Assembly: GCA_046539225.1 (NCBI GenBank)
Contig: JBKHHG010000017.1
Coordinates: 1-16,699, forward strand
DNA length: 16,699 bases
Reading direction: 5' to 3'
From: Candidatus Nanohaloarchaea archaeon
GTDB taxonomy: Archaea > Nanohalarchaeota > Nanosalinia > Nanosalinales > Nanosalinaceae
In this document: in pieces, positions 1 through 16,699 of the stretch
Layout of the letters: every line of letters begins with the position of its first letter
Numbering within the stretch: position 1 is the stretch's first letter
Notes under the pieces: generated by a model
Database searches by the model: none
Told to the model about the DNA's origin: nothing
Seen by the model: only the letters and a program-made list of their open reading frames with translations
Program-made: the position numbers and the translations under genes

Positions 1-1534
1 CCTCGTGTTTCTCGGCCTCCTCCTTCATTTCCTCGATTTCTTCGTCGTCGAGCCGTGAAGCATCGTCGATTGAAATACTTGCTTCTTCTCCGCTCTGTTG
101 TTCCTCTGCGCTGACCTGTAGAATACCGTCGGAGTCGATCTCAAAGGTGACTTCGATCTGTGGCATTCCTGCCTTGGCTGGCGGAATTCCCTGTAGGTTG
201 AACTGTCCGAGGGACTTGTTGTCGCGGGCCATCTCTCTTTCCCCCTGGACAACATTGACGGTAACCATTGACTGGTTGTCCTGAGCTGTCGTAAAGGTCT
301 TGGATTCTTCTGCAGGTATTGTCGTGTTCTTTTCGATCAAAGTCTCTGTCAGGCCTCCCTTGACCTCTACGCCCAGTGAGAGAGGTGCCACATCAAGTAA
401 AAGAATGTCGTCCATCTCTCCCTCGATTGAACCGGCCTGGATTGCTGCTCCCATCGCGACCGCTTCATCCGGCGAGACTTCCTGGCTTGGTTCGAGGCCT
501 GTAATCGCTTGGACGTGTTCTCTGACTGCTGGGACTCGCGTGGTTCCCCCTACCAGAATCACTTCGTCCAGGTCGGAAGAGTCTACCCCTGCGTCTTCCA
601 TCGCGGTTTCAACAGGTTCCGTGGTTCTCTGTATAAGATCTTCTACAAGGTCTTCAAACTTTGAACGCGTTAACTCGTAGTCGATGTTGTAGGTCTCGCC
701 GTCTTCCTGGTGGATGAAAGGAATATTGACTTTGGCGGACTTTTTGGAGCTTAACTCTTTCTTGACTTCTTCCGCCTTTTCCCTGATGCGCTGCAAGGCC
801 TCATCGTTTTCAAGTCTTATGTCGTTTTCTTCCTCGAATTTGTTGAGAATCCATTCCACGATCTCTTCATCAAAGTCGTCGCCTCCGAGATCGTTGTCTC
901 CTTCCGTTGATTGAACTTCATAGATTCCATCGCCCATCTCCAGCACAGTAACGTCAAAAGTTCCGCCACCGAAGTCGTATACAAGAACTTGCTGGTCTCT
1001 ATCATCATCTAAACCGTAAGCCAGTGATGCAGCGGTCGGCTCGTTCAGAATTCTCTCGACTTCAAGGCCTGCGATCTCTCCCGCGTCCTTCGTAGCCTGT
1101 CTCTGAGTATCGTCAAAGTGTGCTGGTACCGTGATGACAGCTTTTGTAACTTCTTCCCCGATTTTATCCTCTGCGTCCTGTTTGAGCTTCTGAAGTATCA
1201 TGGAAGAGATTTCCTGAGGAGTATATTTGCTCCCGCAGCTTTCCTCCGGATCGCTACTCTCAGCAGATTCTCCGTTGGAGTAATCTGCGTCTTCAAGCTC
1301 TACGTCGTAGTCTTCCCCCATGTGGCGCTTGATGGATTTGACAGTGTTCTCCTCGTTGGTCACCATCTGGTTCTTCGCAGGTTTTCCGACCAGTCTTTCA
1401 CCCTCTTCAAATGCGACTATTGAAGGTGTAACTCTTTCACCCTCGCTGTTTTCAATTATCTCCGGTTCTCCGTTTTCTACGTGTGCTACTGCGCTTCTTG
1501 TTGTACCGAGGTCGATCCCGATTATAGCTGCCAT
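1..1534 (-). CDS. dnaK: Molecular chaperone DnaK (Hsp70); C-terminus lies beyond the window edge
   Basis: Manual translation from ATG 1534: [17 protein letters not shown]...[18 protein letters not shown]...[11 protein letters not shown]...[11 protein letters not shown]...LGGDDFD...LVGGTTRVP...[11 protein letters not shown]...[19 protein letters not shown], which are Hsp70 signatures. SD-like GTGGTGA upstream. Missing from the ORF track because it has no stop in the window. Confidence 0.98.
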
Positions 1535-1594
1535 TGTTTTCTAATTCACCACAGTTTTACTTACGTCAATAAAAATTTTTAAACGTGACAGGCC

Positions 1595-1852
1595 TTATTT
1601 TTTCTCCCTTATTCTGTAATCATCTACCTTTATCTGTCCGGATGAATTCTGATAGAGGACGCTCAGCGTTTTACCCTCCCCGTCTAAATCTATATCATAT
1701 TCCAGAGCCGTGTATGGAACGCTTTCAATACTTGAACTGATAATCTTCCTGTGACTATCAACCGCTTCTTCCAGGATTTCAGATATTGATTGTTCAAGTG
1801 CATCCGGCGTTTCAGCCTCAAGATCCAGTAGGGCCTCAAACTCTTTACTCAT
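1595..1852 (-). CDS. Hypothetical acidic protein (~85 aa) between grpE and dnaK
   Basis: ORF MSKEFEALLDLEAETPDALEQ... whose ATG overlaps the end of grpE (GGTGATGAGTAA). Acidic composition matches the genuine genes. No family recognised. Confidence 0.7.
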   Translation of the reverse strand: MSKEFEALLDLEAETPDALEQSISEILEEAVDSHRKIISSSIESVPYTALEYDIDLDGEGKTLSVLYQNSSGQIKVDDYRIREKK

Positions 1853-2330
1853 CACCCACTACCACCTCAGCCTCTCTCAAAACTTTGTCGCCGAACATGT
1901 AGCCTTTCCTCTTCTGCTCTACCACTTTTTTACCTTCCTCTTCCTTCTCCACTGCTTTGTGAAGCTCGGGGTCGAACTCTTCTCCCTCCGCATCGATTCT
2001 CTCCAGGCCTTCACTTTCCAGCTTTTTGTATAACTGGTCTGATACCATCTTTACACCCTGCAGAAGCGCCGAGTCCTCGTCCGCCGACAGAATCGCGCGT
2101 TCAAGGTTGTCAATCACTTCTATCATCTCCTCGGCGAGCTCTTCTTTCGCCTGGTGCTGCCATCTCTGCTTTCTCTCGTCCTGCTTCTTCTTGTAGTTCT
2201 CGAAGTCGGCCTTGAACTTCTTGGCTTTCTCCTCCCATTCCGAGGCCTGTTGCTGCGCCGATTCGAGTTCGTTCTCCAGCTGTTTCAAGGCCTCAATCTT
2301 TTTTTCCTCAGAGAGTTCTCCGTAGTCCAT
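1845..2330 (-). CDS. grpE: Nucleotide exchange factor GrpE
   Basis: KADFENYKKK, VIDNLERAI, GEEFDPELHKAV, KGYMFGDKVLREAEVVV are GrpE motifs; gene lies upstream of dnaK. Confidence 0.96.
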   Translation of the reverse strand: MDYGELSEEKKIEALKQLENELESAQQQASEWEEKAKKFKADFENYKKKQDERKQRWQHQAKEELAEEMIEVIDNLERAILSADEDSALLQGVKMVSDQLYKKLESEGLERIDAEGEEFDPELHKAVEKEEEGKKVVEQKRKGYMFGDKVLREAEVVVGDE

Positions 2331-2355
2331 GTTTCAGGGATGGAGAGAGAATTTT

Positions 2356-2769
2356 TTATGTGTAGCAGGTGTAGGTCATCTCGCTCTCGCCGAGGAATAT
2401 CATCGCCTCTTCCTCAACCACCTGATCCGTAGAGGAAAGACTGTCAAACCTTAACTCGAAGGTCTCCTGCGGGCCTACAAGGCCTTCAGGGCTGAGCGTG
2501 TAGTCAAGCTCTTCCCCGGCCACTATAACGTCAATCTCCGAGTTGTTTATCGAGTTCTGAGGATCCTCGTTTCTTATGTTGAATGCTACATCTCCTCCAT
2601 CTGTCCAGCAGCTTTCAACGTTAAGGTTTTCTGTGTCCAGGGTCAGGTCCGGCGTGTTATCCTGTATATCCTGCTGTGTATCCATCATTACCGTGTAGAA
2701 CGTGCCTGCGGCCGCCACCGTGACAGCCATCAAAAGCACCACTGCAACCACTGGAGTCACTCCTTTCAT
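2356..2769 (-). CDS. Archaeal type IV pilin / archaellin-like protein with class III signal peptide
   Basis: MKG|VTPVVAVVLLMAVTVAAAG matches the K-G|hydrophobic-S/T-P-V prepilin cleavage pattern, followed by a hydrophobic helix and an acidic beta-rich domain. Confidence 0.88.
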   Translation of the reverse strand: MKGVTPVVAVVLLMAVTVAAAGTFYTVMMDTQQDIQDNTPDLTLDTENLNVESCWTDGGDVAFNIRNEDPQNSINNSEIDVIVAGEELDYTLSPEGLVGPQETFELRFDSLSSTDQVVEEEAMIFLGESEMTYTCYT

Positions 2770-2842
2770 ACTCCAGGATAAGGCCTTGAGGTTTTAATCA
2801 GTTTCCAAGAACTTTATCAACCCCTGAAAATATACTTTCTTT

Positions 2843-3319
2843 ATGTCAGAGCATCCTTTTGTAGACGAAGAAGCCAGGAAGACCTCGACAATAGTCACGA
2901 AAAACTCAGTCGCGATACCTGAGGACAGGCAGAAGTACAAGTTAAGTGAGAGGGCGTGGAACTGGGAGAAGATCGTCGACCTGTTCTTCCCGCACGAGCA
3001 ATCACCTAAAAGAAACAAGTACGCCAAGATATTCCTGAGAGAGTTAAAGGCTGAAGGAGAGATCGACTCGGAAAAACTGAATAACTTTGGAGAATGGGGT
3101 CACGAAAAAGGCCTGTCAAACCTGAAAAACAATATCCTGCCAAAACTGAGGCGTCTCGGAGTTATACAGTACGAGTACCTGGAGTACCGTGATTCGAGCG
3201 AAGGCTCTCAAGGCCGCCGAAAAGTAGTCAAACCTGCTAAATCTTTCACATCGATACTGGATTCTATGGCCAATGGCTGGGCCGCCTTCGAGTCAGCTGC
3301 ATACAGCAATCAGGACTGA
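2843..3319 (+). CDS. Hypothetical protein, probable winged-helix DNA-binding protein
   Basis: 158-aa ORF, more basic than its neighbours. LSNLKNNILPKLRRLGVIQY...GRRKVV resembles a wHTH recognition helix plus wing. Divergent from pilin-grpE-dnaK. Confidence 0.7.
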   Translation: MSEHPFVDEEARKTSTIVTKNSVAIPEDRQKYKLSERAWNWEKIVDLFFPHEQSPKRNKYAKIFLRELKAEGEIDSEKLNNFGEWGHEKGLSNLKNNILPKLRRLGVIQYEYLEYRDSSEGSQGRRKVVKPAKSFTSILDSMANGWAAFESAAYSNQD

Positions 3320-3351
3320 ACTCCCGCGCGCGGGCTTTCTGTTCCTGATGC
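3306..3351. terminator. Inverted repeat between convergent genes, possible bidirectional terminator
   Basis: ATCAGGA...CCCGC GC GCGGG...TCCTGAT nested inverted repeat spanning the + gene stop, with CTTTCT on the + strand 3' side of the GC core. Confidence 0.45.
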
Positions 3352-3355
3352 AATG

Positions 3356-3469
3356 TTAAAGAGCGGTCGCTATAACAACTTCTGTATCGGAGCCGACCTT
3401 CGGGGCTTCCCGAACCTCCAAGTCCTGAGCTTCAAGCTCTGCTTCAAAGTTCCGCGTGTTTGCATTCAT
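3356..3469 (-). CDS. Small acidic peptide, 37 aa (MNANTRNFEAELEAQDLEVREAPKVGSDTEVVIATAL)
   Basis: ATG at 3469 is preceded by SD-like GAGGTG with a 10-nt spacer, similar to the histone gene (GGAGGTG plus 11 nt). Acidic composition, unlike the upstream part of the 104-aa track ORF. Confidence 0.65.
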   Translation of the reverse strand: MNANTRNFEAELEAQDLEVREAPKVGSDTEVVIATAL

Positions 3470-3800
3470 TCTTTTCTGGCACCTCGTTGTTCGAATCCAT
3501 AGATTTGGAAAGATTGTCGTAAAGGAGGCCGGAGGACAGGCCTCACCTTGCAAGCAAGACCTGCCCTCAACTGCTCTCCACCAAGTAGTTCCACAGAGGT
3601 AGAAAGCAGTTACCCAGTTTTTGAGTGTTCGCGGTCGGTCATTGGCCACTTCAATCGGCCAAGACTTCATCCCGCTTTACTCTGCCAGAAAATTGATAAT
3701 GGATGTTGCCTTGGCCTTAGTATGGATATACATAGGTCTCCCCAGATCCACGGACACGTTTCCAGAGAGCCATTCAGTATTTGAAACCAAGGCCATTTTC
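3470..3800 (-). ncRNA. Unidentified structured RNA or long 5' leader
   Basis: Helices that pair better on the minus strand through G-U pairs: 3532-3568 (16 bp), 3569-3611 (14 bp), 3638-3665, 3712-3795 (10 bp enclosing 3738-3769). Long-range pairs 3671-3680/3519-3528 and 3683-3692/3472-3481. No convincing protein in any frame. Confidence 0.65.
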
Positions 3801-3825
3801 GACTAACGAAGTATTGGAGCCCCGT

Positions 3826-3842
3826 CCTTAAATATCTTTATA
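3826..3842 (-). promoter_or_regulatory. Putative BRE/TATA promoter for the structured RNA and small peptide
   Basis: Minus strand TATAAAGATATTTAAGG about 30 nt upstream of the first helix. Confidence 0.5.
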
Positions 3843-3986
3843 CTCCCGCCGCAAACCACTCCCCAGAGAAACCTTGAACTAACGGAAAAAAGCCTTTATA
3901 GGCCTTGAATGAGGTTCTATTGGATAGGCCTCAGGGATCGTCAACGATGCAGTAGATTGAAAAATCAGGGTATTCTTCTGTAGTTC

Positions 3987-4439
3987 ATGGATCTTCCGGA
4001 AGGCCTTTCACGGGAGCAAGCTGAAGAACTTTTGAACGAAGCCGATGAAGTAAGAAAAAACACTTTCTCAACCTTCACTGGTAACTCTGTCGGAGCGACG
4101 ATTCTAACTGACTCCGGGAAGACTTACTCTGCGCCCTACTTTGAAAGCGTGATACAGGGTCTTGGGACTTGCGCCGAGAGAAATGCTGTGGGATCTGCGG
4201 TGGCGGACGGAGAATACAAGTTTACAGCGGTCGCAGTAGTCGGAGAGGCTGAAGAACCAATCACGCCCTGCGGAGCATGCAGACAGATACTCTCAGAGTT
4301 CGCGGAAGTCGCACAACACGACATCACTGTCATCATGAGAGGCCAAAATGGAGAAACGGAAGTTGAAAGCCTGGAGAATCTAATGCCGGATAGCTTCGGT
4401 GCCGCGGAAGCCGGGGCAGACCTTGAACAGTACAGATAA
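3987..4439 (+). CDS. cdd: Cytidine deaminase family protein (homotetrameric type)
   Basis: Zinc motifs CAERNA and PCGACRQ, plus VGA and C-terminal LMPDSF; 150 aa. Confidence 0.88.
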   Translation: MDLPEGLSREQAEELLNEADEVRKNTFSTFTGNSVGATILTDSGKTYSAPYFESVIQGLGTCAERNAVGSAVADGEYKFTAVAVVGEAEEPITPCGACRQILSEFAEVAQHDITVIMRGQNGETEVESLENLMPDSFGAAEAGADLEQYR

Positions 4440-5180
4440 CTATTTGATGTGAGGCCTGTAGACATTTTTCTCCAGTCTCTCCACCAAAATCTCCATCAAG
4501 GCCTGAAGGTTCTCCGCGTCGTACCTGTTGTAACGCACCAGCCTATCCAGTGCGTTTTCATCGTTTTTTTCCTCGTATTCCTTCCATAGACGGACCGCTT
4601 CTCTGCCATCGATGTCCTCAAGCTCTCTCTGGATTTCCAGTTCTTTCTCGATCTTCTTGAGGCCTCCGCTCAGGCCTATTCGTTTCGCTGGATACATCAG
4701 GTCGACGTGAGGCGTCTCCACTTCAAGATCGAAGTTGTGCTCCAGGAAGGGCGCGTCAAATCTCTTGCCATTAAAGCTGACAAGCATCTTTGACTCGAAG
4801 AACTCCTGCCTCAAGTTTTCTCTCGTAAGGTCTCTGCCTCTTACAAGCGTCTTTGACTCGCCGCCGCGGTAGAAGCTGACCGTGGTAACTTTATTCTTCT
4901 TTTTGGATAGGCCTGTGGTCTCTATATCGAAGAAGCAGGCCTCTGAGCTGAAGTTTCTGTAAATCCGCCATAGAGATTTGTTTGGAAACTTGTCCTTGAA
5001 GAATACGGAGTTGCCTACCTCCAGGTTTTTCTCTGCTTTCTCCACATGCCTTTTCTTTTCTTCATCAAGCTTCCCCGAGTCTTTCAGGTGATCCCAGTGA
5101 GTGTATCCGGACTTCCAGTACTTTTTCTCGGTTTTCTGGCCTACACCGGGCAGAAAAATGAAGGAGTTTTCGGCTTTCAT
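4440..5180 (-). CDS. RNase H-like domain (YprB-type, DEDD) predicted exonuclease
   Basis: FFDIETTGL, SFNGKRFDAPFL, HVDL, GGLKKIEKELEI and YNRYDAENL motifs; N-terminal LPGVGQKTE HhH-like segment. Confidence 0.85.
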   Translation of the reverse strand: MKAENSFIFLPGVGQKTEKKYWKSGYTHWDHLKDSGKLDEEKKRHVEKAEKNLEVGNSVFFKDKFPNKSLWRIYRNFSSEACFFDIETTGLSKKKNKVTTVSFYRGGESKTLVRGRDLTRENLRQEFFESKMLVSFNGKRFDAPFLEHNFDLEVETPHVDLMYPAKRIGLSGGLKKIEKELEIQRELEDIDGREAVRLWKEYEEKNDENALDRLVRYNRYDAENLQALMEILVERLEKNVYRPHIK

Positions 5181-5221
5181 AAAGAAAAATAGAAGGGGAG
5201 GGGTTAAAAATCCTTCCAGTT

Positions 5222-5419
5222 TTACCTGGAAGTTCTGACGTCTGCAGCCTGGACGGTCTTACGACCTGCGTGCTCTGCGTACTGCTTTGCTTCTCGAGCT
5301 CTGTCTTCCGCGAACTCTTCGAGCTCGTCTCTTAGCTCTTCTACTGCGTCTTCGGAGACTCTTGCGGCGCCAGACTGCTTAATAATTCTCTTAACTGGTG
5401 CGAGTGGTAGTTCTGCCAT
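5222..5419 (-). CDS. Archaeal histone (HMfA/HMfB family)
   Basis: MAELPLAPVKRIIK...ARVSEDA...AEHAGRKTVQAADV is a canonical single histone fold; strong SD GGAGGTGA. Confidence 0.97.
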   Translation of the reverse strand: MAELPLAPVKRIIKQSGAARVSEDAVEELRDELEEFAEDRAREAKQYAEHAGRKTVQAADVRTSR

Positions 5420-5485
5420 AAATTAATTTTCACCTCCTTGTTGAAGGCCTGAAAGGCCTTTTCATGTAAGCCAATTAAACGGGAG

Positions 5486-5500
5486 TGTATAAAAGCCTTT
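5486..5500 (-). promoter_or_regulatory. Putative BRE/TATA box of the histone gene
   Basis: Minus strand AAAGGCTTTTATACA about 70 nt upstream of the ATG, consistent with a leadered mRNA carrying the SD. Confidence 0.55.
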
Positions 5501-5642
5501 CGAGGTTTCCGGCTTCTATAACTGTTCTGCCTCGAGCATGAAACAGCTTTCATCTTCAGACCGGGTTTGAGGCCTGTAAAAAACTCCGGGGAAATGGAGA
5601 GTCACCCGGGAAAACTTTTCGGGTTGCTCCGTCTATACAGAG

Positions 5643-6299
5643 TTACAGGCTTTTCAGTTCCGTTTCAAGGCCTTCATCTGTGTCGAGAACAGCGTAAAAT
5701 CCCTGGTTCACCGGGCCTGGATTCACCATTTTTGTTCCGGCGAGCTGATCAACTCCTCTTGCCTCGTGTATATGGCCTGTCACCAGCAAATCGAAATCTT
5801 TGTCCTCGATGACCTCTCTTACTTCAGGGCTTCCGACGTGTTCCCCGTTGCTGATATCAAGCTCTGTACCTTCCGGTGGTTGATGGATAACCGCCACTTT
5901 CCGTTCTGAAGACATTCTGCCGTGAAGTGTTTCAACTGCTTTTCTGATCTCGTCCCCTGAAGGCTCAAAAGGAGTTCCGAACGGAGTAATTCCGCCTCCG
6001 AAGCCTACGGCCTCGAAATCTCCGAGGCTGGCAATCTTCTTATGAATATTCATCCTTCTCGCTATCAAGGCCTGAACAGACTCCTCTTCAGGATCCATGT
6101 TGCCTGGTACAGCCTTTACAAGGCCTGAACCGGATTCAAAAGTGTCGAGGACTTCTCCGAGGTTCTGGCTGTAGTCTGTGTACTCGCTGGCGTCGCTCAG
6201 GTCTCCGGCGCAGAGAACCGTGTCAAAGCTTTCCCGGGACAGGATTTTCTCAAGGTTTTCGACGTTTCCATGTATATCAGTTAAAAGCAGGACTTTCAT
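5643..6299 (-). CDS. Calcineurin-like metallophosphoesterase (Icc-related)
   Basis: DIHGN, GDL, PGNMD, HQPP and GHIHE metal-binding motifs. Confidence 0.93.
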   Translation of the reverse strand: MKVLLLTDIHGNVENLEKILSRESFDTVLCAGDLSDASEYTDYSQNLGEVLDTFESGSGLVKAVPGNMDPEEESVQALIARRMNIHKKIASLGDFEAVGFGGGITPFGTPFEPSGDEIRKAVETLHGRMSSERKVAVIHQPPEGTELDISNGEHVGSPEVREVIEDKDFDLLVTGHIHEARGVDQLAGTKMVNPGPVNQGFYAVLDTDEGLETELKSL

Positions 6300-6352
6300 G
6301 TTGAATAAAAGACCGGGGCAGAAATAAAGGCCTTTCCAACCAAGTTTCAGGT

Positions 6353-8740
6353 ATGCGGCTCCAGGTTTTTGACGCGGACTACACCACCGACCCGTTAAAG
6401 CTCAGGGTCTTCGGGAAGAACAGCGACGGAGTCTACAAGCTTATCGACACAGAGTTCAAACCATACCTCTACGCGCTCCCCGAGGAAAACCTGGAAGAAA
6501 TGAGGGAAGAAGTCGAGGCCTCGGAGTTCGAGACCGACCAGGGCGAAAAACTTGAGCCCCTGAAAGTTGAAGCAGTCGAGATGCAGGACGAGAACCAGGA
6601 GGTTGAGGCCTTGAAAGTTTACGCTGAAGAACCTGCAGAGGTTCCAAAGCTGAAGAACAGTCTCTGGGATCTGGAAACGGTTCAGGAGTGCAGAGAGTTC
6701 GATATCCCGTTCTACCGCCGCTACCTAATCGACAGAGACGTAAGGCCTGGAGACTGGATCGAGGTTGAAGGAGAGGAAAAGAATTCCAAAGATTTTGAAG
6801 CAGAGATCCGGGTAAAAGAGCTGAGGCCTGTGAAAAGCAGTGAAGAAGTCGACTGGAACCATCTATCATTCGATCTCGAGGTCGTTGATGACAGGGTTGT
6901 AATGGCCTCGCTTTACTCGGAAAGTTTTGAGAAAGTCCTTTCGCTGAAGGATATAGGCCTCGAATTTGTCGAGAAAGTTGAATCCGAAGAACAGATAGTT
7001 GAAAGAATTGTAGAGATCGTTGACGGGAGAGAAGTCGATATCCTGACAGGTTACAACACCGATGAGTTTGATTTTGACGTGTTGAGAAGAATTGAGGAAG
7101 AAACCTCTGTTGAACTCGCGCTGGGAAGAGACGGCGAGAGAATGAAGTTCAACCGCCGCGGAAGATTCAAGGGAGCGAGAATCAAAGCCAGGATGCATCT
7201 CGACCTATACCCCTTTGTCTCGCACGTGCTCTCCCCAGGCCTTGACTCCGAGACCCTGGACCTTGACTCGGTCGCCCAGGAACTCCTGGACATGGAGAAA
7301 GACGACATAGAATGGAGCGAAATGAAAAACATCTGGGAAAACGAAGAAGAACTTGAAAAATTTGCTGAGTACGCGCTGAAGGACTCCCGCCTGACCTATC
7401 TTCTCGGCGAAAAAATCTATCCACAGATACTCGAACTCTCAAAGATTACAGGCCTTATACCCTTCGACACCTGCAGACTCACCTATGGACAGCTCACAGA
7501 AAACTACCTGCTCAGAGAAGCACATGAACGCGGAAAACTCGCCAAGAACAGGCCTTCGCAGAAGAAAAGAAACAAGAGGGACAGGGAAGAGGCTTACACC
7601 GGAGGATTCGTCTACACCCCGGAAGAAGGCCTTTACGAAGACGTCGCGGTCTTCGACTTCCGCTCACTCTACCCTACGGTAATGGTAGCCCACAACATCT
7701 CTCCGGACACTTTTAACATCGAAGAATGCAGCGAAGAATTCAATATAGATGAGCTGAACTACTCTTTCTGCCAGGACAAGCAGGGATTCTTCCCGGAACT
7801 TGTTGAAGATCTTGTAAGCTCGCGCTACACCATAAAATCCGAGATGAAAGATTTAGACGAAGAAACCGAACGTTACACCGATCTCTACAACCGGCAGCAG
7901 GCCCAGAAAATACTTGCAAACTCTTTCTACGGTTATCTGGGTTACAGCGGCGCACGCTGGTATTCAAGAGAAAGCGCGGAAGCCACAACATTTCTTGGAA
8001 GAAAATACATTCAGGAAACGATCGAGAAAGCAAAGGAGAGAGGCTTCGAAATGGTTTACGGAGATACTGACTCCGTAATGCTCAGGAAAGATAATCTGGA
8101 AGAAGAACTGGATGAATTTGTTGAAGAAGTAAACTCTGATCTCCCCAGGTTTATGGAGCTCGAGTTTGAAGGCCTTTTCAAGAGAGGATTTTTTACCTCG
8201 AAGGAGTCAGGTGAGGGAGCCAAGAAAAAGTATGCTTTAATTGATGAAGACGGTAACCTGAAGATTACTGGTTTTGAACAGGTTAGAAGGGACTGGAGCC
8301 CTGTAGCTAAACAAACCCAGAAAAAAGTACTGAGAAAAGTCCTCGAGGATGAGGTCGAAGAAGCCGCTGAAGAAGTCAAAAGTACTATAGAGGCCTTGCA
8401 AAACGGCGAGATAGATGTAGAAGATTTGAGGATTTATACGACGTTGACAAAGCCGCCTGAAGAGTACAACTCGACGGCTCCACATGTCGAAGCGGTTAAA
8501 AAAGCCGAGAAACGCGGCGACGATATTGAGGCGGAGACAACTGTGGGTTATGTTATTACAAGAGGCGGTAAATCTATTTCGGACAGCGCCGAACTTGTTA
8601 AATACGCTGACAGCTATGAAGCTGAATATTACATCGATAACCAGGTTATACCCGTTGCTCTCCGGGTTTTGAAGGTTTTCGGCTATACAGAGGAAGAGTT
8701 AAAGGGTAAAGGCCGTCAAAGCGGCCTCAACCGCTTTTAG
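6353..8740 (+). CDS. polB: Family B DNA polymerase, no intein
   Basis: ExoI FDLEV, ExoII YNTDEFDF, ExoIII YALKD; polymerase DFRSLYP, KILANSFYGY, YGDTDS; archaeal N-terminal EFDIPFYRRYLID; C-terminal PIP-like QSGLNRF. Confidence 0.98.
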   Translation: MRLQVFDADYTTDPLKLRVFGKNSDGVYKLIDTEFKPYLYALPEENLEEMREEVEASEFETDQGEKLEPLKVEAVEMQDENQEVEALKVYAEEPAEVPKLKNSLWDLETVQECREFDIPFYRRYLIDRDVRPGDWIEVEGEEKNSKDFEAEIRVKELRPVKSSEEVDWNHLSFDLEVVDDRVVMASLYSESFEKVLSLKDIGLEFVEKVESEEQIVERIVEIVDGREVDILTGYNTDEFDFDVLRRIEEETSVELALGRDGERMKFNRRGRFKGARIKARMHLDLYPFVSHVLSPGLDSETLDLDSVAQELLDMEKDDIEWSEMKNIWENEEELEKFAEYALKDSRLTYLLGEKIYPQILELSKITGLIPFDTCRLTYGQLTENYLLREAHERGKLAKNRPSQKKRNKRDREEAYTGGFVYTPEEGLYEDVAVFDFRSLYPTVMVAHNISPDTFNIEECSEEFNIDELNYSFCQDKQGFFPELVEDLVSSRYTIKSEMKDLDEETERYTDLYNRQQAQKILANSFYGYLGYSGARWYSRESAEATTFLGRKYIQETIEKAKERGFEMVYGDTDSVMLRKDNLEEELDEFVEEVNSDLPRFMELEFEGLFKRGFFTSKESGEGAKKKYALIDEDGNLKITGFEQVRRDWSPVAKQTQKKVLRKVLEDEVEEAAEEVKSTIEALQNGEIDVEDLRIYTTLTKPPEEYNSTAPHVEAVKKAEKRGDDIEAETTVGYVITRGGKSISDSAELVKYADSYEAEYYIDNQVIPVALRVLKVFGYTEEELKGKGRQSGLNRF

Positions 8741-9538: not shown

Positions 9539-9577
9539 ACAGGGGATAAGAAACTTCTACCAATAAAAAACTCCTGT

Positions 9578-10981
9578 TCATGTATGGATACTCTTGCCCA
9601 GAGCATCCTCACAGGCCTCCATAAAGGCCTCCGAAAAAGTTGGATGGGCGTGAACCGTGCCTGTAACATCCTTGAGGTAGGCCTGAAGCTCAAGCGCCAG
9701 AGTCGCCTCCGCAACCATGTCAGAAGCCCTGTTCGCCACGAACGCGGCACCAAGAATCTTGTTGTTCTCCGAGGCAACCACTTTTGCATATCCTTTGGGC
9801 GTGTTCGTGGTCAAGGCCCTTCCAGAGTACTTCATCGGAAACCTGCCGACTTTAACGTTTTCATGGCTTTCCTGGGCCTCTTCTTCGGATAGGCCTACTG
9901 TCGCAACCTCGGGATCGGTGTACATAACCTCGGGGATATACTGCGAATCCATCCCCGTGCTCTCTCCTGCTGCAACTTCTCCGACGGTTTTACCCTCCAT
10001 GTAGGCCTTGTGAGCCAGGAGCGGGCCTCTAGCCGCGTCTCCAATCACAAAGATGTTTTCAGAGGCCTTCATCTGCGGATCCGTCTCCACAAAACCGTTT
10101 TCATTTATCTCTACACCTGTGTTCGCCAGCTCGACGCTCTCCAAGTTTGAACGGGTTTCGCGCCCGACCGCTACCAGGATGTAGTCGCCTTTGATCTCGA
10201 CTTTCTCTCCATCCTTTTCAGCCACAAGCACAGGCCGTTCACCTTCTTTAACTTCTACAGCTTTTGTATCTGTATAGACTTCGTCGCTGTATGTATCCGA
10301 GGCCTCCTGAAGTTCCTCGACAACCTCTTCATCGAAGTTTGGAAGTATCTGCTCCTCTGCCTCGACAATCTTAACTATTGATCCGAAGCTTCCGAACTTT
10401 GTGGCTGCCTCCATCCCTATGTAGCCACCTCCGACAACGACCAGTTCTTCAGGCGCCTCGTCAAGATTCAAAAGCTCCCTGGACGATATAACGCCTTCTT
10501 TTTCAAATTCAAGGCCTGGAACCTCTATAGGTTTGCTGCCGGTCGCGACAACGCATTCATCAAAGTTTAACTTGTCAGTCCTGTGTTCCTGTTCTACTCT
10601 GACTGTTGAATCATCTATAAACCTTGCTTCTCCCTTTATTATTTCGACGCCGACCGATTCAAGCTTGTTTTTAACTCCTTTATTCAGTTTTTCGACTACG
10701 CCGTTTTTCCAGGCCTGTAATTCCTTTAGATCCGTGTCAAGGTTTTCCGAGTGTATGCCTATTTCTCTCCAGGCCTCCACTTCTTCCTCTACTTCTGCGG
10801 CGTGTATCAAGGCCTTTGCAGGTATGCAGCCCCGGTTGAGGCAGGTTCCGCCGATATCCTCTTTCTCCACCAGAGTAACGTCTACACCCATCTGTCCGGC
10901 TCTGATCGCTGCCGAGTAGCCTCCAGGTCCACCACCTATAACAAGCAGCTCTGTACCTGTTTCAATATCTCCTACAACCAT
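9578..10981 (-). CDS. lpdA: Dihydrolipoyl dehydrogenase (E3)
   Basis: GGGPGGY, GGTCLNRGCIP, GGGYIG, HAHPTFSE; ATG overlaps the pdhC stop (TGATG). Confidence 0.97.
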   Translation of the reverse strand: MVVGDIETGTELLVIGGGPGGYSAAIRAGQMGVDVTLVEKEDIGGTCLNRGCIPAKALIHAAEVEEEVEAWREIGIHSENLDTDLKELQAWKNGVVEKLNKGVKNKLESVGVEIIKGEARFIDDSTVRVEQEHRTDKLNFDECVVATGSKPIEVPGLEFEKEGVISSRELLNLDEAPEELVVVGGGYIGMEAATKFGSFGSIVKIVEAEEQILPNFDEEVVEELQEASDTYSDEVYTDTKAVEVKEGERPVLVAEKDGEKVEIKGDYILVAVGRETRSNLESVELANTGVEINENGFVETDPQMKASENIFVIGDAARGPLLAHKAYMEGKTVGEVAAGESTGMDSQYIPEVMYTDPEVATVGLSEEEAQESHENVKVGRFPMKYSGRALTTNTPKGYAKVVASENNKILGAAFVANRASDMVAEATLALELQAYLKDVTGTVHAHPTFSEAFMEACEDALGKSIHT

Positions 10982-12417
10982 CACATATCCACCAGCAAGT
11001 TTTTAGGGTTCTCAAGATCTTTCACAACTTTGTTCATGAATTTTGCGGCTTCTGCACCGTCTACAACACGGTGATCATAGCTTAAACTGAGTTTGACTGT
11101 TTTCCTTGGAACCACTTCTCCTTCAATTACTTCAGCAGTCTCCTGTATCTTTCCGACGCCGAGAATCGCGGTCTGAGGCGGGTAAATGATCGGTGTGAAG
11201 GCCTCGCCTCCGATAACCCCGATATTTGTTATGGAGAAAGTCCCGGATTTCAGCTCTTGCCTTGAGAGGCCTCCTTCACGGGCTTTCGAGGCCTTTTCGG
11301 CTATCTCCTCCGCGAGCTCTACCATGGTTAACTGGTCCACGTCTTCAATTCTTGGAACCATCAGGCCTCTCTCGGTGTCGACTGCGATGTTAAAGTCGTA
11401 GAAGTTTTTCTGAATTATCTCATCGTGTTCAAGATCCAGTTCAGAGTTCAACCTGGGATGCTGCTTCAAAGCCGCTACACAGGCCTTGATGATGAAAGGC
11501 AGGTATGTCAGATGTGCATCTACATCGGACTTGACCGACTCCCTGAGCTCCACAAGCCGGGTTATATCCGCCTTCTCTATATGGGTGACGTGAGCGGCTT
11601 CATCCTTTGACTCAGCCATTCTCTCCGCAGTAATCCTTCTAACATTTGACATCTCAACCCTTTCCACATCGCCTTCATGAGTGATAACAGGTTCATCCTC
11701 TTCATCTACTTCTTTTTCCGAGGCCTCAAGCACGTCTTCACGGGTGACCTCGCCGCCTCTTCCAGAGCCTTCAACCTCTGAAATCTCAACGTTTTGCTGC
11801 CGCGCCAGCTCTCTCACAGAAGGCCTCGCATTTACACCGCTGAAATCAGAAGTCTCCACATCTTCTCCAACTTTTTCCTTTTTATCCTTGGATCTGCCTT
11901 TCTCATCTTCCTCTCTGATATACTCCTCTTCTCCTGAGGCCTTGAGCACGTCTTCTTCCCGGATCCGGCCCTCAACATTCAGCTTTCCGAGATCGACTCC
12001 TTTCTCCTCCGCCAGCTTTCTGACTCTCGGCAAAGCAAGGATCTCTCCAGAACTCGAGGCCTCTTCGTTCTCTTCCACCTTTTTCTGTTCAATATTCTCT
12101 TTAGCTCCGTTTATGGATTCTTCCTTGGCTTCCTCTACTTTTTCTGAGGCCTCTGCTTCGTTTACTTCTCCGGCATCTGTCTCTTCTCCTGTGTCAAGCT
12201 CCATGATGACCTCTCCGACTTTGACGGTGTCGCCAGCCTCAACTTTCAGGTCCTTGACGGCCCCATCAGCGGGCGACGGAATCTCCACCACGGCCTTGTC
12301 TGTCTCCGCCTCCCCAACAACCTGGTCTTCCTCGATCTCTTCTCCCTCCTCTACCTTCCACTCCAGGAACTTTCCCTCTGTAACTCCTTCACCGGTGTCA
12401 GGAAACTCGAACTTCAT
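10981..12417 (-). CDS. pdhC: Dihydrolipoamide acyltransferase (E2)
   Basis: Lipoyl domain ETDKA, two peripheral-subunit-binding domains, catalytic GTFSITNIG and DHRVVDG. Confidence 0.95.
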   Translation of the reverse strand: MKFEFPDTGEGVTEGKFLEWKVEEGEEIEEDQVVGEAETDKAVVEIPSPADGAVKDLKVEAGDTVKVGEVIMELDTGEETDAGEVNEAEASEKVEEAKEESINGAKENIEQKKVEENEEASSSGEILALPRVRKLAEEKGVDLGKLNVEGRIREEDVLKASGEEEYIREEDEKGRSKDKKEKVGEDVETSDFSGVNARPSVRELARQQNVEISEVEGSGRGGEVTREDVLEASEKEVDEEDEPVITHEGDVERVEMSNVRRITAERMAESKDEAAHVTHIEKADITRLVELRESVKSDVDAHLTYLPFIIKACVAALKQHPRLNSELDLEHDEIIQKNFYDFNIAVDTERGLMVPRIEDVDQLTMVELAEEIAEKASKAREGGLSRQELKSGTFSITNIGVIGGEAFTPIIYPPQTAILGVGKIQETAEVIEGEVVPRKTVKLSLSYDHRVVDGAEAAKFMNKVVKDLENPKNLLVDM

Positions 12418-12510
12418 GAAACTTCAGAAAGTTTTATCATTGGAGGCTGGGCTCAGCAAGGTGAGGCCGCCTTCAGATGTTTTTCCGGTTTTTATGTTTA
12501 TTATAATCAC

Positions 12511-13476
12511 CTAAAATTCGAGTACTCTTTTCAGGCCTTTTACAGCTCTCTCCTTGTTCGGCATGTAGAAGTCCTCCAAAGTGTAGAGCGGGTAAGGCAC
12601 GTCAGGAGCGGTAACTCTTTCCACAGGCGCCTCCATAGAGAGTATCGCATTCTCCTGTATCCTTGTCGCTATCTCAGCTCCCATACCGCCTGTTTTCGGC
12701 GCCTCGTGCAGTATCATCGCTCTACCGGTCTTTTCCACTGAATCGGTTATGGCTTCGTAGTCCATAGGATGGATAGTCCTTGGATCGATGATCTCCACGG
12801 AAGCGTTTACTTCTTCCGCTGCGTCTTCTGCGACAGGCACCATTGCGCCCCAGGCGATCAGGGTCACGTCCTCTCCTTCCTGGACTGTTCGGGCGTCCTC
12901 CAGTTCAACCTCTTTATCTCTATTGACTTCTTCCTTGAACGCTCTGTAGGTTTTCTTCGGCTCCAGAAAGACCACAGGATCGTCTAGCTGTATAGATTTT
13001 CTCAGAAGCGAGTAGGTGTCCTGTGGCGTGCTCGGAATCACGACTCTGAGGCCTTGGGCGTGCGAGAAGAATGTCTCCGGCGATTCCTGGTGGTGTTCAA
13101 GAGCGGATATTCCTCCGCCGTAAGGCGCCCTGACAGTCAGCGGAACTTCGTAGTCACCGCGGCTTCTCGTTCTGAAACGGGCCGCATGTTCCTTAATCTG
13201 GTGGAACGCCAGGTAGGAGAAACCTGAGAACTGCATCTCCACTACAGGCCTGAAACCGTAAAGACCCATTCCTATAGCGGTCCCAGCAATACCTGACTCC
13301 GCCAGCGGCGAGGAAAAACATCTTTCCTCTCCAAACTCTTCCTGCAATCCTTCCGTGGCTCTGAAGACGCCTCCGTCCTCTCCAACGTCTTCTCCGTACG
13401 CTATAACTTTTTCATCTTCTTCCATTTCGTCGTGAATGGCTTCTCTAACCGCCTCAATAATATTCATCTCTGTCAT
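12511..13476 (-). CDS. pdhB: Pyruvate/2-oxoacid dehydrogenase E1 beta subunit
   Basis: GEDVG..GGVFRAT, PLAESGIAG, EMQFSGF, HHQES; SD AGGTGA. Confidence 0.95.
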   Translation of the reverse strand: MTEMNIIEAVREAIHDEMEEDEKVIAYGEDVGEDGGVFRATEGLQEEFGEERCFSSPLAESGIAGTAIGMGLYGFRPVVEMQFSGFSYLAFHQIKEHAARFRTRSRGDYEVPLTVRAPYGGGISALEHHQESPETFFSHAQGLRVVIPSTPQDTYSLLRKSIQLDDPVVFLEPKKTYRAFKEEVNRDKEVELEDARTVQEGEDVTLIAWGAMVPVAEDAAEEVNASVEIIDPRTIHPMDYEAITDSVEKTGRAMILHEAPKTGGMGAEIATRIQENAILSMEAPVERVTAPDVPYPLYTLEDFYMPNKERAVKGLKRVLEF

Positions 13477-13525
13477 TCGAAAATCACCTGATTTTCTGGA
13501 TGACCGGAAACTCTCCGAGTTTCGA

Positions 13526-14584
13526 TCATTCTTCCACCTCTTCTCTAAGCTTTTCTTTCTCCTTTTTCAGCATTTCTGGCATCTCGCCGTACACATAATC
13601 AAACATCTCGTCAAACTCAGGATCCTCCATCTCCAAGGCCTTTTTGGCTGCTTCATCGACTTTCTCCTCTGCTTTCTCTTCAAATGATTCAAGCTCATCA
13701 TTCCAGATACCGTGTTCTTTCAGGTACTCGCGGAAACGCTTCAGAGGATCTTCATCCTTCCATTCCTCGACTTCCTCCTCATTCCTGTAACGCGTCGAGT
13801 CGTCCGAAGTTGTGTGATCCTCCAGACGGTAAGTCAAGGCCTCTATCAGAACAGGTTCGCCTTTCCGCGCCTTCTCCAGAGCTTCTTCCACTGCCTTGAT
13901 CACAGCCAGTAAATCGTTTCCATCGACCTGTATACCGTCTATCCCATACGCTATAGCTTTCTGTGCGATTGTATCCGATTTAGTCTGTTTCTCCCGCGGC
14001 ATGCTGATCGCGTACTGGTTGTTCTGCACGAAGAAGATTGAATGCGCATTGTAGACGCCTGAAAAGTTCAAGGCCTCGTTAAAGTCTCCCTCCGAAGTGC
14101 TTCCATCGCCTGTAAACCCTATTACCGCGTTTTCATCGCCTTCTTTCTCCATCGCCATCCCGATTCCCGCGGTGTGAAGGTTCTGCGTTCCTACCGGGAT
14201 TGCGACGGGAAGAATGTTCAGTTCTGCGAGGCCTTTCTGGCCGTTCGCGTCACCCATCCATCGTCTGAAAATTTTGTCGAGAGGCGCTCCTCTCGCGATA
14301 AAGGCCGCGGTCTCACGAAAACTCGGTACCATCCAGTCCTCTTCTTCCAGGGCGAACATAGCTCCGATCTGCGCAGCCTCCTGGCCTTTGTGCGGAGCAT
14401 AAGTCGAAATATCGCCTCTTCTCTGGAGAGAGAAGGCCTTTTCATCGAATTTCCGTGCTAAAACCATGTTTTTGTAGAGTTCTCTGTACTCGTCCTCCTC
14501 TATCCATGGAAAATCGTCTTCATCCTCGGTGTCCATCACTTCAACTCTTTCGACTTTACCGGAGTATACTTCCCGCCGCACCAT
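13526..14584 (-). CDS. pdhA: Pyruvate/2-oxoacid dehydrogenase E1 alpha subunit
   Basis: GQEA, TPP motif GDGSTSEGDF...NNQYAIS, TYRLEDHTTSDD. Confidence 0.95.
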   Translation of the reverse strand: MVRREVYSGKVERVEVMDTEDEDDFPWIEEDEYRELYKNMVLARKFDEKAFSLQRRGDISTYAPHKGQEAAQIGAMFALEEEDWMVPSFRETAAFIARGAPLDKIFRRWMGDANGQKGLAELNILPVAIPVGTQNLHTAGIGMAMEKEGDENAVIGFTGDGSTSEGDFNEALNFSGVYNAHSIFFVQNNQYAISMPREKQTKSDTIAQKAIAYGIDGIQVDGNDLLAVIKAVEEALEKARKGEPVLIEALTYRLEDHTTSDDSTRYRNEEEVEEWKDEDPLKRFREYLKEHGIWNDELESFEEKAEEKVDEAAKKALEMEDPEFDEMFDYVYGEMPEMLKKEKEKLREEVEE

Positions 14585-14606
14585 ACAGGGTTAAGGCCTC
14601 TGGCTG

Positions 14607-14617
14607 TATATAAAAAA
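14607..14617 (-). promoter_or_regulatory. TATA box of the pdh operon (probably leaderless)
   Basis: Minus strand TTTTTTATATA about 23 nt upstream of the pdhA ATG; no SD. Confidence 0.6.
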
Positions 14618-14710
14618 TAGTTTGCGACTTTCCGGTGAACTCGGCCGGGAGGCCTTCAACCGGTTTAATTGTTTGAGGTATCGGCAGTACTCTTCCGGAA
14701 TGTGTCTACC

Positions 14711-14737
14711 GTTGAGTAGACTCAACAACCTAAATAA
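14711..14737 (+). promoter_or_regulatory. Perfect 7-2-7 palindrome next to a putative TATA box of the acetate-CoA ligase gene
   Basis: GTTGAGT-AG-ACTCAAC (14711-14726), then TAAATAA (14731-14737) about 23 nt before GTG 14760. Confidence 0.45.
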
Positions 14738-14759
14738 CGAGGCTGTAGAAAGACAGTAC

Positions 14760-16699
14760 GTGAGTCTCGAAAAACTTTTCAGGCCTGAGAAAGTCGCGGT
14801 TGTCGGAGCCTCTCGCCAGGAAGGAAAGACAGGTCATGAAGTGTTCGATAACCTGCATCACGGCTTTGAAGGAGAGGTGGTGCCGGTCAACCCTAACGCA
14901 AAAGAAGTTGAAGGGGTTGAGGCCTTGGATGAGATTCCATCGGGTACTGACTTGGTGGTTGTGGTGGTGCCGGCGAAGATTGTTCCACAGGTTATTGAGG
15001 ATGCGGCGGAGAAAGATGTGGAGGCTGCGGTTGTAATATCGGCAGGGTTCTCCGAGTCAGGCAGGTCAGATCTTGAGAACCGGGTTGTGGAAACTGCGGA
15101 GGAAAACGGTATCGCTCTTCTTGGGCCGAACGTTTTAGGCCTGATCAACACGGAAAACTCGATGAACGCCAGCTTCGCTTCAAAAATGCCGGAAGAAGGA
15201 GATATATCTTTCATGAGTCAGAGCGGAGCTTTCTGCACAGCGATCCTGGATTATGCGAAGGCGGAACACATAGGGTTCAGGCACTTTGTCTCGCTGGGTA
15301 ACAAGTCGATGCTGAACGAGGTCGACTTCCTGGAGAAATGGAGGGAAGACGATACAGAAGCCGTTTTGAGCTATACCGAGGGAATTGAAGACGGCAGAGA
15401 GTATATGGAGGAGGCGGAGAAAACCTCGAGGCAAAAACCGGTGATTACAGTCAAATCCGGGAGAACCGACAAAGGAGGAGACGCTGCTTCCTCACACACC
15501 GGAAGCATAGCAGGTTCTTACCAGGCCTACAAGGCAGCGTTCAGAAAAGCAGGTATAATCGAAGCGGAGTCGAACAGAGAGCTTCTTGACTTTGGAAGAA
15601 GCTTCGCATACCAGCCGCTGCCCTCAGGAAAAAATATAATGATTGTGACGAATGCAGGAGGCCCGGGAGTTATCTCAACCGATGAAGTATCGCAGCGAGG
15701 CCTGAAGCTTGCAGAACTCGACACCGAGACAAAGATGGATCTCCACGAGTTCATGCCTGGAGAATCCACGATTCGAAATCCGTTGGATTTGATTGGAGAC
15801 GCCGGGCATTCACGTTACAGAAAGGCCTTGGAAGCTGTAGGTCAGGACGAAAACGTTGACGGCGTACTGGTGCTCTTGACGCCTCAGGCCAACACCGAAA
15901 TCAAGAAGACTGCTAAAACTATAGTAAAGGCCGGTAAAGACATAGAAAAGCCTGTGTTCGCGTGTTTCATGGGGGAAGAAGATGTTTCTCTGGGCGTGGA
16001 AATACTTGAGGAAAACAATATACCGGACTTTGAGGATCCTGTCGACGCGGTAAAGGCCTTTAAAGAAATGAGTAAATACAGGGAGTTTCTTGAAACGGAA
16101 AGAAACTACTGGGATGTTGACTACGACGCTGAAAAAGCCCATAAGGCCTTGAGAAATCGGCAGGGCTACATGCAGGGCCACAATCTTTTGGAGGCCTACG
16201 GATTTGATCTTCCGATGACAGTGAACGCTGAAGCCCCGCATCCTGCAGAGGAGGCCGCGGTAGACATCGGTTATCCTGTTGTCATGAAGATTAACTCGCC
16301 TGATATTGCACATAAAACCGAGATCGACGGCGTTAAAACAGGGATAAGTTCAAGGCAGGAAGTCAACGACACCTTCAACCAGATAGTCAACAGTGTTCAC
16401 CGCGAAAAACCTGGATCAGAGATTAACGGGGTAGTGGTCCAGGAACAGGTGGAAGGCCTTGAAGTAGCTTTAGGCATGAAGAGAGATCCGCAGTTCGGAC
16501 CGATGATAATGGTAGGCCTCGGCGGGATCTACATAGAGGCGCTCCACGACATATCCTTCGGAATCGCACCGATAAGCGGAGAAGAAGCCGAACAGATGAT
16601 CGAAGAGCTTCAGGCCTCAGAACTCTTTAAAGGCGCAAGAGGAGAAGAACACTCTCTCGAACCGGTAAAAGAAGCTATCATAAAACTTGGAGAACTATC
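14760..16699 (+). CDS. acdAB: Acetate-CoA ligase (ADP-forming), fused alpha-beta type; runs off the window edge
   Basis: Manual translation from GTG 14760: MSLEKLFRPEKVAVVGASRQEGKTG...ISAGFSE...LGPNVLG...SQSGA...SLGNK...SSHTGSIAG...TNAGGPG...NPLDLIGDA, then the ATP-grasp part IGYPVVMKINSPDIAHKTEIDGV...RDPQFGPMIMVGLGGIYIE. Confidence 0.93.
   Translation, partial: MSLEKLFRPEKVAVVGASRQEGKTGHEVFDNLHHGFEGEVVPVNPNAKEVEGVEALDEIPSGTDLVVVVVPAKIVPQVIEDAAEKDVEAAVVISAGFSESGRSDLENRVVETAEENGIALLGPNVLGLINTENSMNASFASKMPEEGDISFMSQSGAFCTAILDYAKAEHIGFRHFVSLGNKSMLNEVDFLEKWREDDTEAVLSYTEGIEDGREYMEEAEKTSRQKPVITVKSGRTDKGGDAASSHTGSIAGSYQAYKAAFRKAGIIEAESNRELLDFGRSFAYQPLPSGKNIMIVTNAGGPGVISTDEVSQRGLKLAELDTETKMDLHEFMPGESTIRNPLDLIGDAGHSRYRKALEAVGQDENVDGVLVLLTPQANTEIKKTAKTIVKAGKDIEKPVFACFMGEEDVSLGVEILEENNIPDFEDPVDAVKAFKEMSKYREFLETERNYWDVDYDAEKAHKALRNRQGYMQGHNLLEAYGFDLPMTVNAEAPHPAEEAAVDIGYPVVMKINSPDIAHKTEIDGVKTGISSRQEVNDTFNQIVNSVHREKPGSEINGVVVQEQVEGLEVALGMKRDPQFGPMIMVGLGGIYIEALHDISFGIAPISGEEAEQMIEELQASELFKGARGEEHSLEPVKEAIIKLGEL

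Follow-up and report, generated by a model that had tools for sequence, protein, structure and literature searches.

Why does a single six-base palindrome, AGGCCT, recur through genes and spacers alike in a stretch of nanohaloarchaeal DNA, and what keeps it there? The question is raised by contig JBKHHG010000017.1 of a Candidatus Nanohaloarchaea archaeon (assembly GCA_046539225.1, family Nanosalinaceae), analysed over its whole length of 16,699 nucleotides, hereafter the window. It contains 87 copies, from position 351 to 16612-16617, that is, 5.2 per kb, and the next most frequent palindromic hexamers reach 8 copies each. The first-pass annotation, made from the letters alone, had described 85-90 copies of an archaeal counterpart of HIP1, the highly iterated palindrome of cyanobacteria, enriched some 20-fold; the count agrees, and the observed/expected ratio (O/E) against base composition is 21.9 in the window and 20.3 in the whole genome. 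The explanation that we favour, at slightly better than an even chance, is that the five-base AGGCC, acting best as the palindrome AGGCCT, is a Chi-like signal of an AddAB-type helicase-nuclease. The sites of the window are the following:

351..16617, no strand: dispersed AGGCCT, candidate Chi-like site, 87 copies.
2781..2786, no strand: AGGCCT in non-coding DNA; also at 3538, 3900, 3926, 5445, 5454, 5570, 6328, 14594 and 14650.

The enrichment belongs to the genome and not to one contig or assembly. The source genome of the window (G000; 606,781 bp, 82% complete, 38 contigs), in which 729 genes were called, holds 2,850 copies, present in 38 of 38 contigs at 1.7-5.8 per kb, and the idea of a HIP1-like iterated palindrome in an archaeon is thus sustained at the genomic scale. 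Twelve other genomes are likewise rich in the word (rich being 0.95 AGGCCT per kb or more), and contigs from a second sample of the same study (run X2) cover the window with few differences; none of the 36 strain differences listed hits an AGGCCT, a comparison of low power in which four rows close to the start of the contig were set aside, and runs X3 and X4 cover the window little. As had been stated, the word occurs in different codon phases (8, 37 and 31 copies in the called genes of the window), and its density in G000 is 4.6 per kb in coding and 5.4 per kb in non-coding DNA. Synonymous codon shuffling of G000 yields 438±18 copies against 2,554 observed, and its non-coding DNA holds 282 against 8.5-10.5 expected, which bears out the earlier contention that amino-acid usage alone is insufficient and extends the spacer enrichment to the whole genome. 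A dicodon-preserving null would retain AGG-CCT by design; the spacer count settles that point. Ten sites are wholly non-coding within the 1,441 non-coding bp of the window; in the list of spacer sites given previously, 14595 should be 14594, 3538 had been missed, and 1590 overlaps a gene end. No AGGCCT was found in 11 tRNAs (869 bp).

A bias of codons, dicodons or amino acids, or an artefact of assembly or binning, could appeal to the Markov nulls, under which the O/E in G000 falls from 20.3 at order 0 to 16.4, 5.9, 2.4 and finally 1.11 at order 4. However, the high-order nulls are circular, because the constituent 5-mers mostly come from AGGCCT itself, and three unrelated codon contexts, the second sample and the 12 other genomes also speak against such an origin, which the shuffle and spacer counts had already refuted and to which we assign practically no probability. 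The flanks of the word vary, in accordance with the first-pass annotation, yet 5' T and 3' A are under-used in G000; they are not fully free, because this genome avoids CTAG (O/E 0.14). CTAG is scarce in G000 and not in three congeners (5 against 61-71 copies in loci of 18-20 kb).

The force behind the word can be measured by its occupancy. In G000, AGGCCT fills 446 of 522, 911 of 1,211 and 1,177 of 1,495 synonymously allowed places (75-85%), whereas eight control words fill just 0.2-25% of theirs, and when one parameter is fitted, the odds come out at 46-fold for G000 and 12.5-fold for a second rich genome, G034. The proteins are affected as well. In 509 ortholog pairs, the permissive contexts per 1,000 amino acids are 2.9, 6.4 and 7.6 in G000 against 1.3, 2.9 and 4.4 in the poor genome G024, with independent control contexts nearly flat, and the context excess climbs from 12.0 to 19.7 in less conserved proteins, G024 holding steady at 8.2-8.8. 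Since permissive contexts have approximately doubled, controls are flat and the excess is larger where proteins are less conserved, AGGCCT has altered amino acids; the force is strong enough to change what is encoded. A relic of this amino-acid signal was not resolved in the marker genes of poor relatives. Even without Chi, a reduced symbiont in which one word has doubled peptide contexts offers a strong case of proteins constrained at the DNA level.

The trait is unevenly distributed. Rich genomes are 13 of the 50 examined in the family (all five of genus g1, including the intermediate G003, 2 of 6 in g2, 3 of 3 in g7 and 3 of 3 in g19) and 0 of 20 from other families of the order. In a FastTree phylogeny of 41 genomes based on RNA polymerase and EF2, the rich genera fall within a single subclade (support 0.998), where the poor g4/g14, g20 and g21 are interspersed among them. 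Named rich records comprise Ca. Nanosalina sp. VS9-1 (4.6 per kb), Nanohaloarchaea SG9 (4.2 per kb, both in 22-kb loci) and M3_22, and the poor ones include Nanosalina J07AB43 and Nanosalinarum J07AB56. No alternative iterated word stands out in the poor genomes (10-20 kb each), and the viral scan gave no clear AGGCCT-specific halovirus among the 122 stretches listed. Intermediate densities (0.6-1.2 per kb) are seen in G003 and in loci L105, L376 and L378. G003 has two AddB-like copies and carries one-off variants at 70% of its unoccupied marker-gene places, a pattern that looks like the trait in decay. In G024, GGCC is avoided generally (O/E 0.41), ACGT-containing hexamers stand at 0.14-0.29, and a C5 methyltransferase is encoded on L002; this avoidance (L142-L189) is probably that of restriction sites.

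The first-pass annotation had offered a ratchet of methylation and repair, following the Elhai model or Vsr-like, on a GGCC or AGGCCT methyltransferase site, which would make the word functionless. The GGCC core with flanks added on either side resembles the two-step ratchet of Elhai as set out in the available part of that paper (PMC4390886), and local saturation fits a short repair patch. Moreover, in-site differences at 99% identity are nearly all C-to-T (6 counted against 1.8 expected, in 4 distinct events), a hint of modified cytosines that may reflect either a raised mutation rate at these bases or a milder cost of transitions. The genes required do not accompany the trait. In the 61-genome set, PF00145 (C5) matched 1 of 11 rich genomes and PF02086 (D12) 0 of 11, PF01555 (N4/N6) passed its cut-off only in G022 and marginally in G026, and in rich G005, G010 and G034, each closed in a single contig, none of the three passes its cut-off. 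Motif scans for methyltransferases beyond these families, which covered only G000, G034, G024 and part of G022, revealed in G000 and G034 only RNA- or protein-type enzymes, and neither Vsr nor MutS was found in any of 5 rich genomes; as no common methyltransferase, Vsr or MutS was found, the ratchet is left unsupported. NucS was rejected as the cause, being near-universal (36 of 41 genomes) and showing no diagnostic change in 29 sequences.

Site turnover, to which the first-pass annotation had pointed, leads in the same direction. Two relatives with 256 and 219 sites have 135 in common, and 10 control words are only 14-47% shared. Between two metagenome loci that are 94% identical over 16.3 kb (L396 and L398), 50 of 56 sites are shared, and in-site synonymous changes amount to 9 C-to-T against 22.1 expected, 2 A-to-G against 5.2 and 0 transversions against 12.5. 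In total there are 11 synonymous losses against 39.8 expected and 7 gains against 1.8, and 7 of 10 one-off places are unconverted in both strains. Pure protection predicts almost no losses together with normal gains, and a selection-like force is therefore favoured; a fast repair ratchet predicts few shared one-off places, yet most of them stay, and it is disfavoured for that reason. Furthermore, AGGTCT (1.3x) and AGGCTT (2.0x) show no depletion, and both cytosines vary alike. Thus, the turnover fits best a selection-like force, rather than fast repair conversion or protection alone, and the ratchet has become an unlikely account. No reduced divergence was seen near AGGCCT sites, 4-fold sites being close to saturation.

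The internal structure of the word gives further information. It had been proposed that the unit is the 6-mer, but the 5-mer AGGCC is enriched by itself, strongly so in genus g19. Compared with bare GGCC, this half-site is raised 1.3-1.8x in G000, 1.5-2.5x in g19 and 2-3x in other rich loci, and in g19 the full-site level is close to the product of two half-sites. In each of the four rich sets, half-sites show a sense-strand excess (1.38-1.68, p at most 1.5e-4), the values in poor sets being 0.86, 1.13, 1.09 and 1.48. It was this half-site behaviour that brought Chi into consideration as an explanation.

Full sites, in addition, are mutually exclusive within about 30-45 bp: in three data sets, sites 8-31 bp apart stand at 0.55, 0.48 and 0.44 relative to the level at long range, and near them half-sites are excluded as well, inner variants not. 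With occupancy permuted among allowed places, 143 close pairs were counted against 183±7 in G000 and 30 against 52±5 in G034, and 0 of 500 permutations reached counts as low in either genome. The window contains a few of these unusual pairs:

5445..5459, no strand: rare very close pair (5445/5454); further cases at 4660/4672 and 9613/9625; across the genome, pairs this close are scarcer than expected.

Hairpin avoidance was rejected as the reason for this exclusion: inverted repeats in general, over 8-31 bp, stand mostly at 0.8-1.2x (one bin down to 0.56) against 0.3-0.7 for the sites. A previous shuffle control in G000 stood at 0.78, which leaves room for a small generic contribution in that genome. 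Half-sites of G000 that are followed 3' by a full site number 48 (0.38x) and those that have one 5' of them 107 (0.87x), in both coding orientations, a polarity that would be that of Chi, with the site met from its 3' side. The spacing periodicity that had been raised earlier did not emerge, no clear peak being seen at 5-100 bp.

The candidate reader of the word is an AddAB-like pair encoded outside the window, at G000:C2:28886-34077, where an 835-aa protein with a C-terminal PD-(D/E)XK nuclease is followed by an 895-aa UvrD helicase-nuclease. The latter, AddA-like subunit matches Pfam UvrD, UvrD_C and PDDEXK_1, carries in G000 a Walker A, a DEFQD and a nuclease motif, and scores below the NCBIfam AddA cut-offs; judged by its sequence, it is an SF1A helicase with a C-terminal RecB-family nuclease. 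The adjacent AddB-like subunit has the C-terminal nuclease, no Walker A and just 2 cysteines, so that an AddB-type Fe-S cluster would be missing; lacking both Walker A and the 4Fe-4S cysteines, the pair is called AddAB-like and not B. subtilis-type. In the ESM Atlas, tentative pointers to its kinship are a cluster named 'ATP-dependent helicase/nuclease subunit B' (0.96) and, for the N-terminal half, ADDB_N clusters (0.90-0.92); the family comprises 514 clusters at 50% identity, and the Atlas sample is mostly archaeal, with one Halostella member.

The initial survey found the AddB-like gene in all 11 rich genomes covered and in 12 of the 26 poor ones of the family. On aligning these 23 N-termini, F-A-x-T-P-x-R was present in 11 of 11 rich genomes, and its F and R together in 1 of 12 poor ones. 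The motif, chosen on these 23 sequences, was then applied to 13 unseen genomes (G061-G073) and predicted the state of all 13: two rich, with the motif in the gene, and 11 poor, in seven of which the gene was not found and in four the motif was absent. Over the whole family, the motif lies inside the AddB-like gene in 13 of 13 rich against 2 of 37 poor genomes (2 of 16 when only poor carriers of the gene are counted); the AddA-like partner was checked and found in 4 of the 13 rich genomes. Of the g2 genomes, the two rich ones carry the AddAB-like pair; in the four poor ones (77-89% complete) no AddB-like gene was found, and a search with the AddA-like query yielded nothing in three and a single weak partial match in the fourth. 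Regarding sister genera, g7 is rich with the motif intact and g21 is poor with the motif lost. The AddA-like gene of poor G024 is shortened to 759 aa and has lost the nuclease end, and the subunits are separated there by two small genes.

By eye, these two inserted genes (G024 L167:11194-11665) resemble a RelE-like toxin-antitoxin pair. An RmuC-like gene lies upstream of the AddAB-like genes on L167 and at G000:C2:27577, and a short Cdc6/Orc1 paralog is found about 3-5 kb from the AddB-like gene at G005:C1:506662 and G010:C1:629366.

In B. subtilis, AddB reads AGCGG through D41, Q42, T44, F68, R70, W73 and F210, in modified motifs Ia/Ib, as described in the accessible parts of PMC3321194 and PMC4614115. 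Position 49 of the archaeal protein (numbering of homolog P0027) is R in 27, Q in 27 and E in 17 of 116 homologs and is invariant in rich genomes, the pattern that would be expected of a specificity position; D24 and R49 are 25 residues apart, and D41 and R70 of B. subtilis AddB 29. Across 43 homolog proteins, allowed-place density is 13.4 per 1000 aa with the motif against 9.8 without (p 0.07, one motif call being doubtful).

A factor supplied in trans by the haloarchaeal host or by a virus, be it a methyltransferase, a nuclease or an enzyme of repair, would make the trait follow host use, in keeping with its patchiness on the tree; cytoplasmic bridges, and a hint that a methyltransferase passes from the symbiont into its host, are described in part of PMC11001535. 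Nevertheless, an archaeal restriction-modification survey gives, in its portion at hand, persistent GGCC methylation only for Sulfolobus acidocaldarius (PMC10609329), and such a factor leaves the AddB-like match unexplained, making this origin improbable.

Among the explanations first put forward, a selected motif fits, and the evidence favours a signal for recombination or end resection over chromosome organisation or uptake. According to the Chi-like mechanism, the AddB-like N-terminal domain would be the Chi scanner, with R49 taking the role of R70 in B. subtilis AddB. The enzyme would degrade DNA from a break until it meets AGGCC and then spare the 3' strand for RadA. Thus, a chromosome copy carrying the site would keep it during break repair, and a copy without it would be resected past that point and rewritten from the site-bearing copy. 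This conversion, together with the sparing of self DNA from degradation, would resemble selection or biased conversion and make sites spread. The palindrome would present AGGCC on both strands and so serve both directions, a site just behind another would add little, and lineages losing or degrading the enzyme would lose AGGCCT. Whether the wider picture is correct we hold to be evenly balanced: that some Nanohaloarchaea run a Chi-regulated, AddAB-type end resection, the first in archaea, with a palindromic Chi, AGGCCT, near saturation (about 80% of permissive codon contexts rewritten and certain tripeptides doubled), which may mark own as opposed to degraded host or viral DNA.

Several observations weigh against the Chi-like interpretation. 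The AddB-like N-terminal domain has no significant PDB sequence match, ADDB_N is not among its listed Pfam matches and there is no NCBIfam match for it; equating R49 with R70 is a guess from spacing. Poor G007 keeps the motif, its AddA looks intact and 24 kb of its sequence show no other iterated word; poor G016 keeps it too, though the gene is split, and G003 keeps it yet has only 0.95 sites per kb, with an occupancy of 6 of 33 in marker genes. Poor G015 and G028 give a pattern match with no AddB-like gene found around it, and these matches may be due to chance, since a reversed control pattern matches about as often. The Fisher p of the association (3e-10) is far overstated, because kin are not independent and there are about four informative contrasts (within g2; g7 against g21; g1 against g20; the upper against the lower clade; and g19 against g4/g14, which is split). 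It should be added that about a dozen other candidates were tried before the AddAB-like pair. The sense bias appears in one poor control set too (1.48, n=106, p 0.08), and G034 shows no leading/lagging difference under three origin guesses, its origin not being established. Exclusion is non-polar in two other data sets (26 against 28; 112 against 121), with half-sites depleted on either side; in G034, depletion is stronger for half-site pairs on opposite strands than for those on the same strand, contradicting a polar model, and the exclusion range is below what simple shielding predicts. The enrichment of AGGCCT is presumably far above that of known Chi sites. The word also lacks the GxGG core that these have in the literature excerpts available, and a 2026 preprint denies archaea both AddAB and chi sites.

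Some of these observations would suit another protein, such as a chromatin or condensin-type organiser or a DNA-uptake receptor, that recognises a pair of AGGCC half-sites in double-stranded DNA and covers 30-45 bp, while the AddAB-like genes are only co-retained, for example because both persist in lineages with active recombination. Full- and half-site exclusion without polarity in 2 of 3 data sets, near-multiplicative half-sites in g19 and the lack of replichore bias are what it would produce, and the proteome remodelling is similar to that caused by uptake sequences. HIP1, besides, has been linked to transformation and chromosome structure in the available parts of PMC13756078 and PMC5861425. 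On the other side, none of the 7 tested genes present in G000 and G034 and not in G024 tracks the trait, no periodicity appears, and both the joint absence of trait and gene within g2 and the sense-strand bias are left unexplained. We consider this protein doubtful but keep it in the discussion, because the Chi-like reading does not explain why exclusion reaches so short a distance, why polarity is confined to G000 or why a replichore bias is lacking.

The subtraction of G024 from G000 plus G034 included the Pfam scanning of 145 of 298 G034-only proteins; 153 small ones, about 20 shared candidates and 346 G024-only genes lie outside it. DnaG, the Cdc6 paralog, a small wHTH, an HVO_0163-like HTH, MazG and a coiled-coil protein were rejected, as all are also in poor genomes, and an orphan protein because it is absent from rich G005 and G010. 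The AddAB-like pair was missed in this way because G024 holds a degenerate copy. Other genes of G034 missing in G024 are adjacent NAD-dependent ligase and PolX genes (L220:9417-13133), and Mrr (L196), McrB-like and SMODS genes (L204).

The window itself has the following gene content:

2..1534, minus strand: dnaK (Pfam HSP70), with AGGCCT at 351, 495, 796 and 1065.
4440..5180, minus strand: RNase_H_2-family exonuclease gene (Pfam), with 7 AGGCCT.
6353..8740, plus strand: family B DNA polymerase (PolB; Pfam), used to fetch related loci.
9578..14584, minus strand: 2-oxoacid dehydrogenase cluster E1a/E1b/E2/E3, named by reading translations.
14700..16697, plus strand: ADP-forming acyl-CoA synthetase (Pfam).

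Among named records, the PolB is closest to those of Nanohaloarchaea, with identities of up to 71%. L107, a contig titled as a Colwellia metagenome-assembled genome, encodes a PolB with 62% identity to that of the window and is probably a mis-binned nanohaloarchaeal contig. At 2843-3319 there is a 158-aa open reading frame without Pfam match whose DNA is conserved in three congeners. The following 670 bp or so (3320-3986) have no called gene and three AGGCCT, and may be a structural RNA; an Rfam scan of the window gave no match, this region having none at gathering score.

As far as our search reached, with subscription journals mostly outside it, no publication on AGGCCT enrichment or on AddAB/Chi in Nanohaloarchaea was found, and the string GGCC is absent from the main texts, in the parts available, of two papers on the methylomes of cultivated nanohaloarchaea (PMC11001535, PMC10266531). 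If true, the association of an AddAB-like pair with a hyper-abundant word would overturn the view of archaea as devoid of AddAB and chi, and would be the first named reader for a highly iterated palindrome.

Chi sites belong to the AddAB and RecBCD enzymes of bacteria, that of B. subtilis being the 5-mer AGCGG (PMC3321194, PMC4614115 and PMC4824097, each in part). AGGCCT resembles them as a short genome-wide word accompanied by an AddA-like helicase-nuclease and a nuclease partner with a putative inactive helicase domain, in its AGGCC 5-mer unit with strand asymmetry, and in a polarity in G000 that would be that of a site met from its 3' side; candidate contact residues near motifs Ia/Ib, placed by spacing, may correspond to those of B. 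subtilis AddB. Unlike them, it has an archaeal host, a palindromic optimum, no replichore bias and odds of about 46-fold with proteome remodelling. An orientation bias with replication direction is typical of Chi, and because it was not seen in G034 the word is filed as Chi-like and not as a member of Chi.

The DNA uptake sequences of Neisseriaceae and Pasteurellaceae are 9-10 bp long, non-palindromic and have known receptors. AGGCCT shares their high density, altered encoded peptides and drive-like accumulation, and differs in being palindromic and 6 bp long, with no receptor candidate found.

Finally, AGGCCT has in common with HIP1, GCGATCGC, and the alternate HIPs of cyanobacteria that it is a hyper-abundant palindrome present in all frames and spacers and conserved between relatives, with enriched terminal one-off variants and patchy loss, as these are described in the available parts of PMC4390886, PMC5861425 and PMC13756078. 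It departs from them in its 6 bp, its archaeal host, its 4-5 copies per kb, the absence of short-range periodicity and the fact that no cognate methyltransferase was found. Xu et al. report, in the part of their paper at hand, that CAGGCCTG, which contains AGGCCT, is over-represented in Synechococcus PCC 6312. The 30-year-old question of HIP1 may thus be approached from a methyltransferase-free palindrome that is gained or lost even within one genus and that has a candidate reader.

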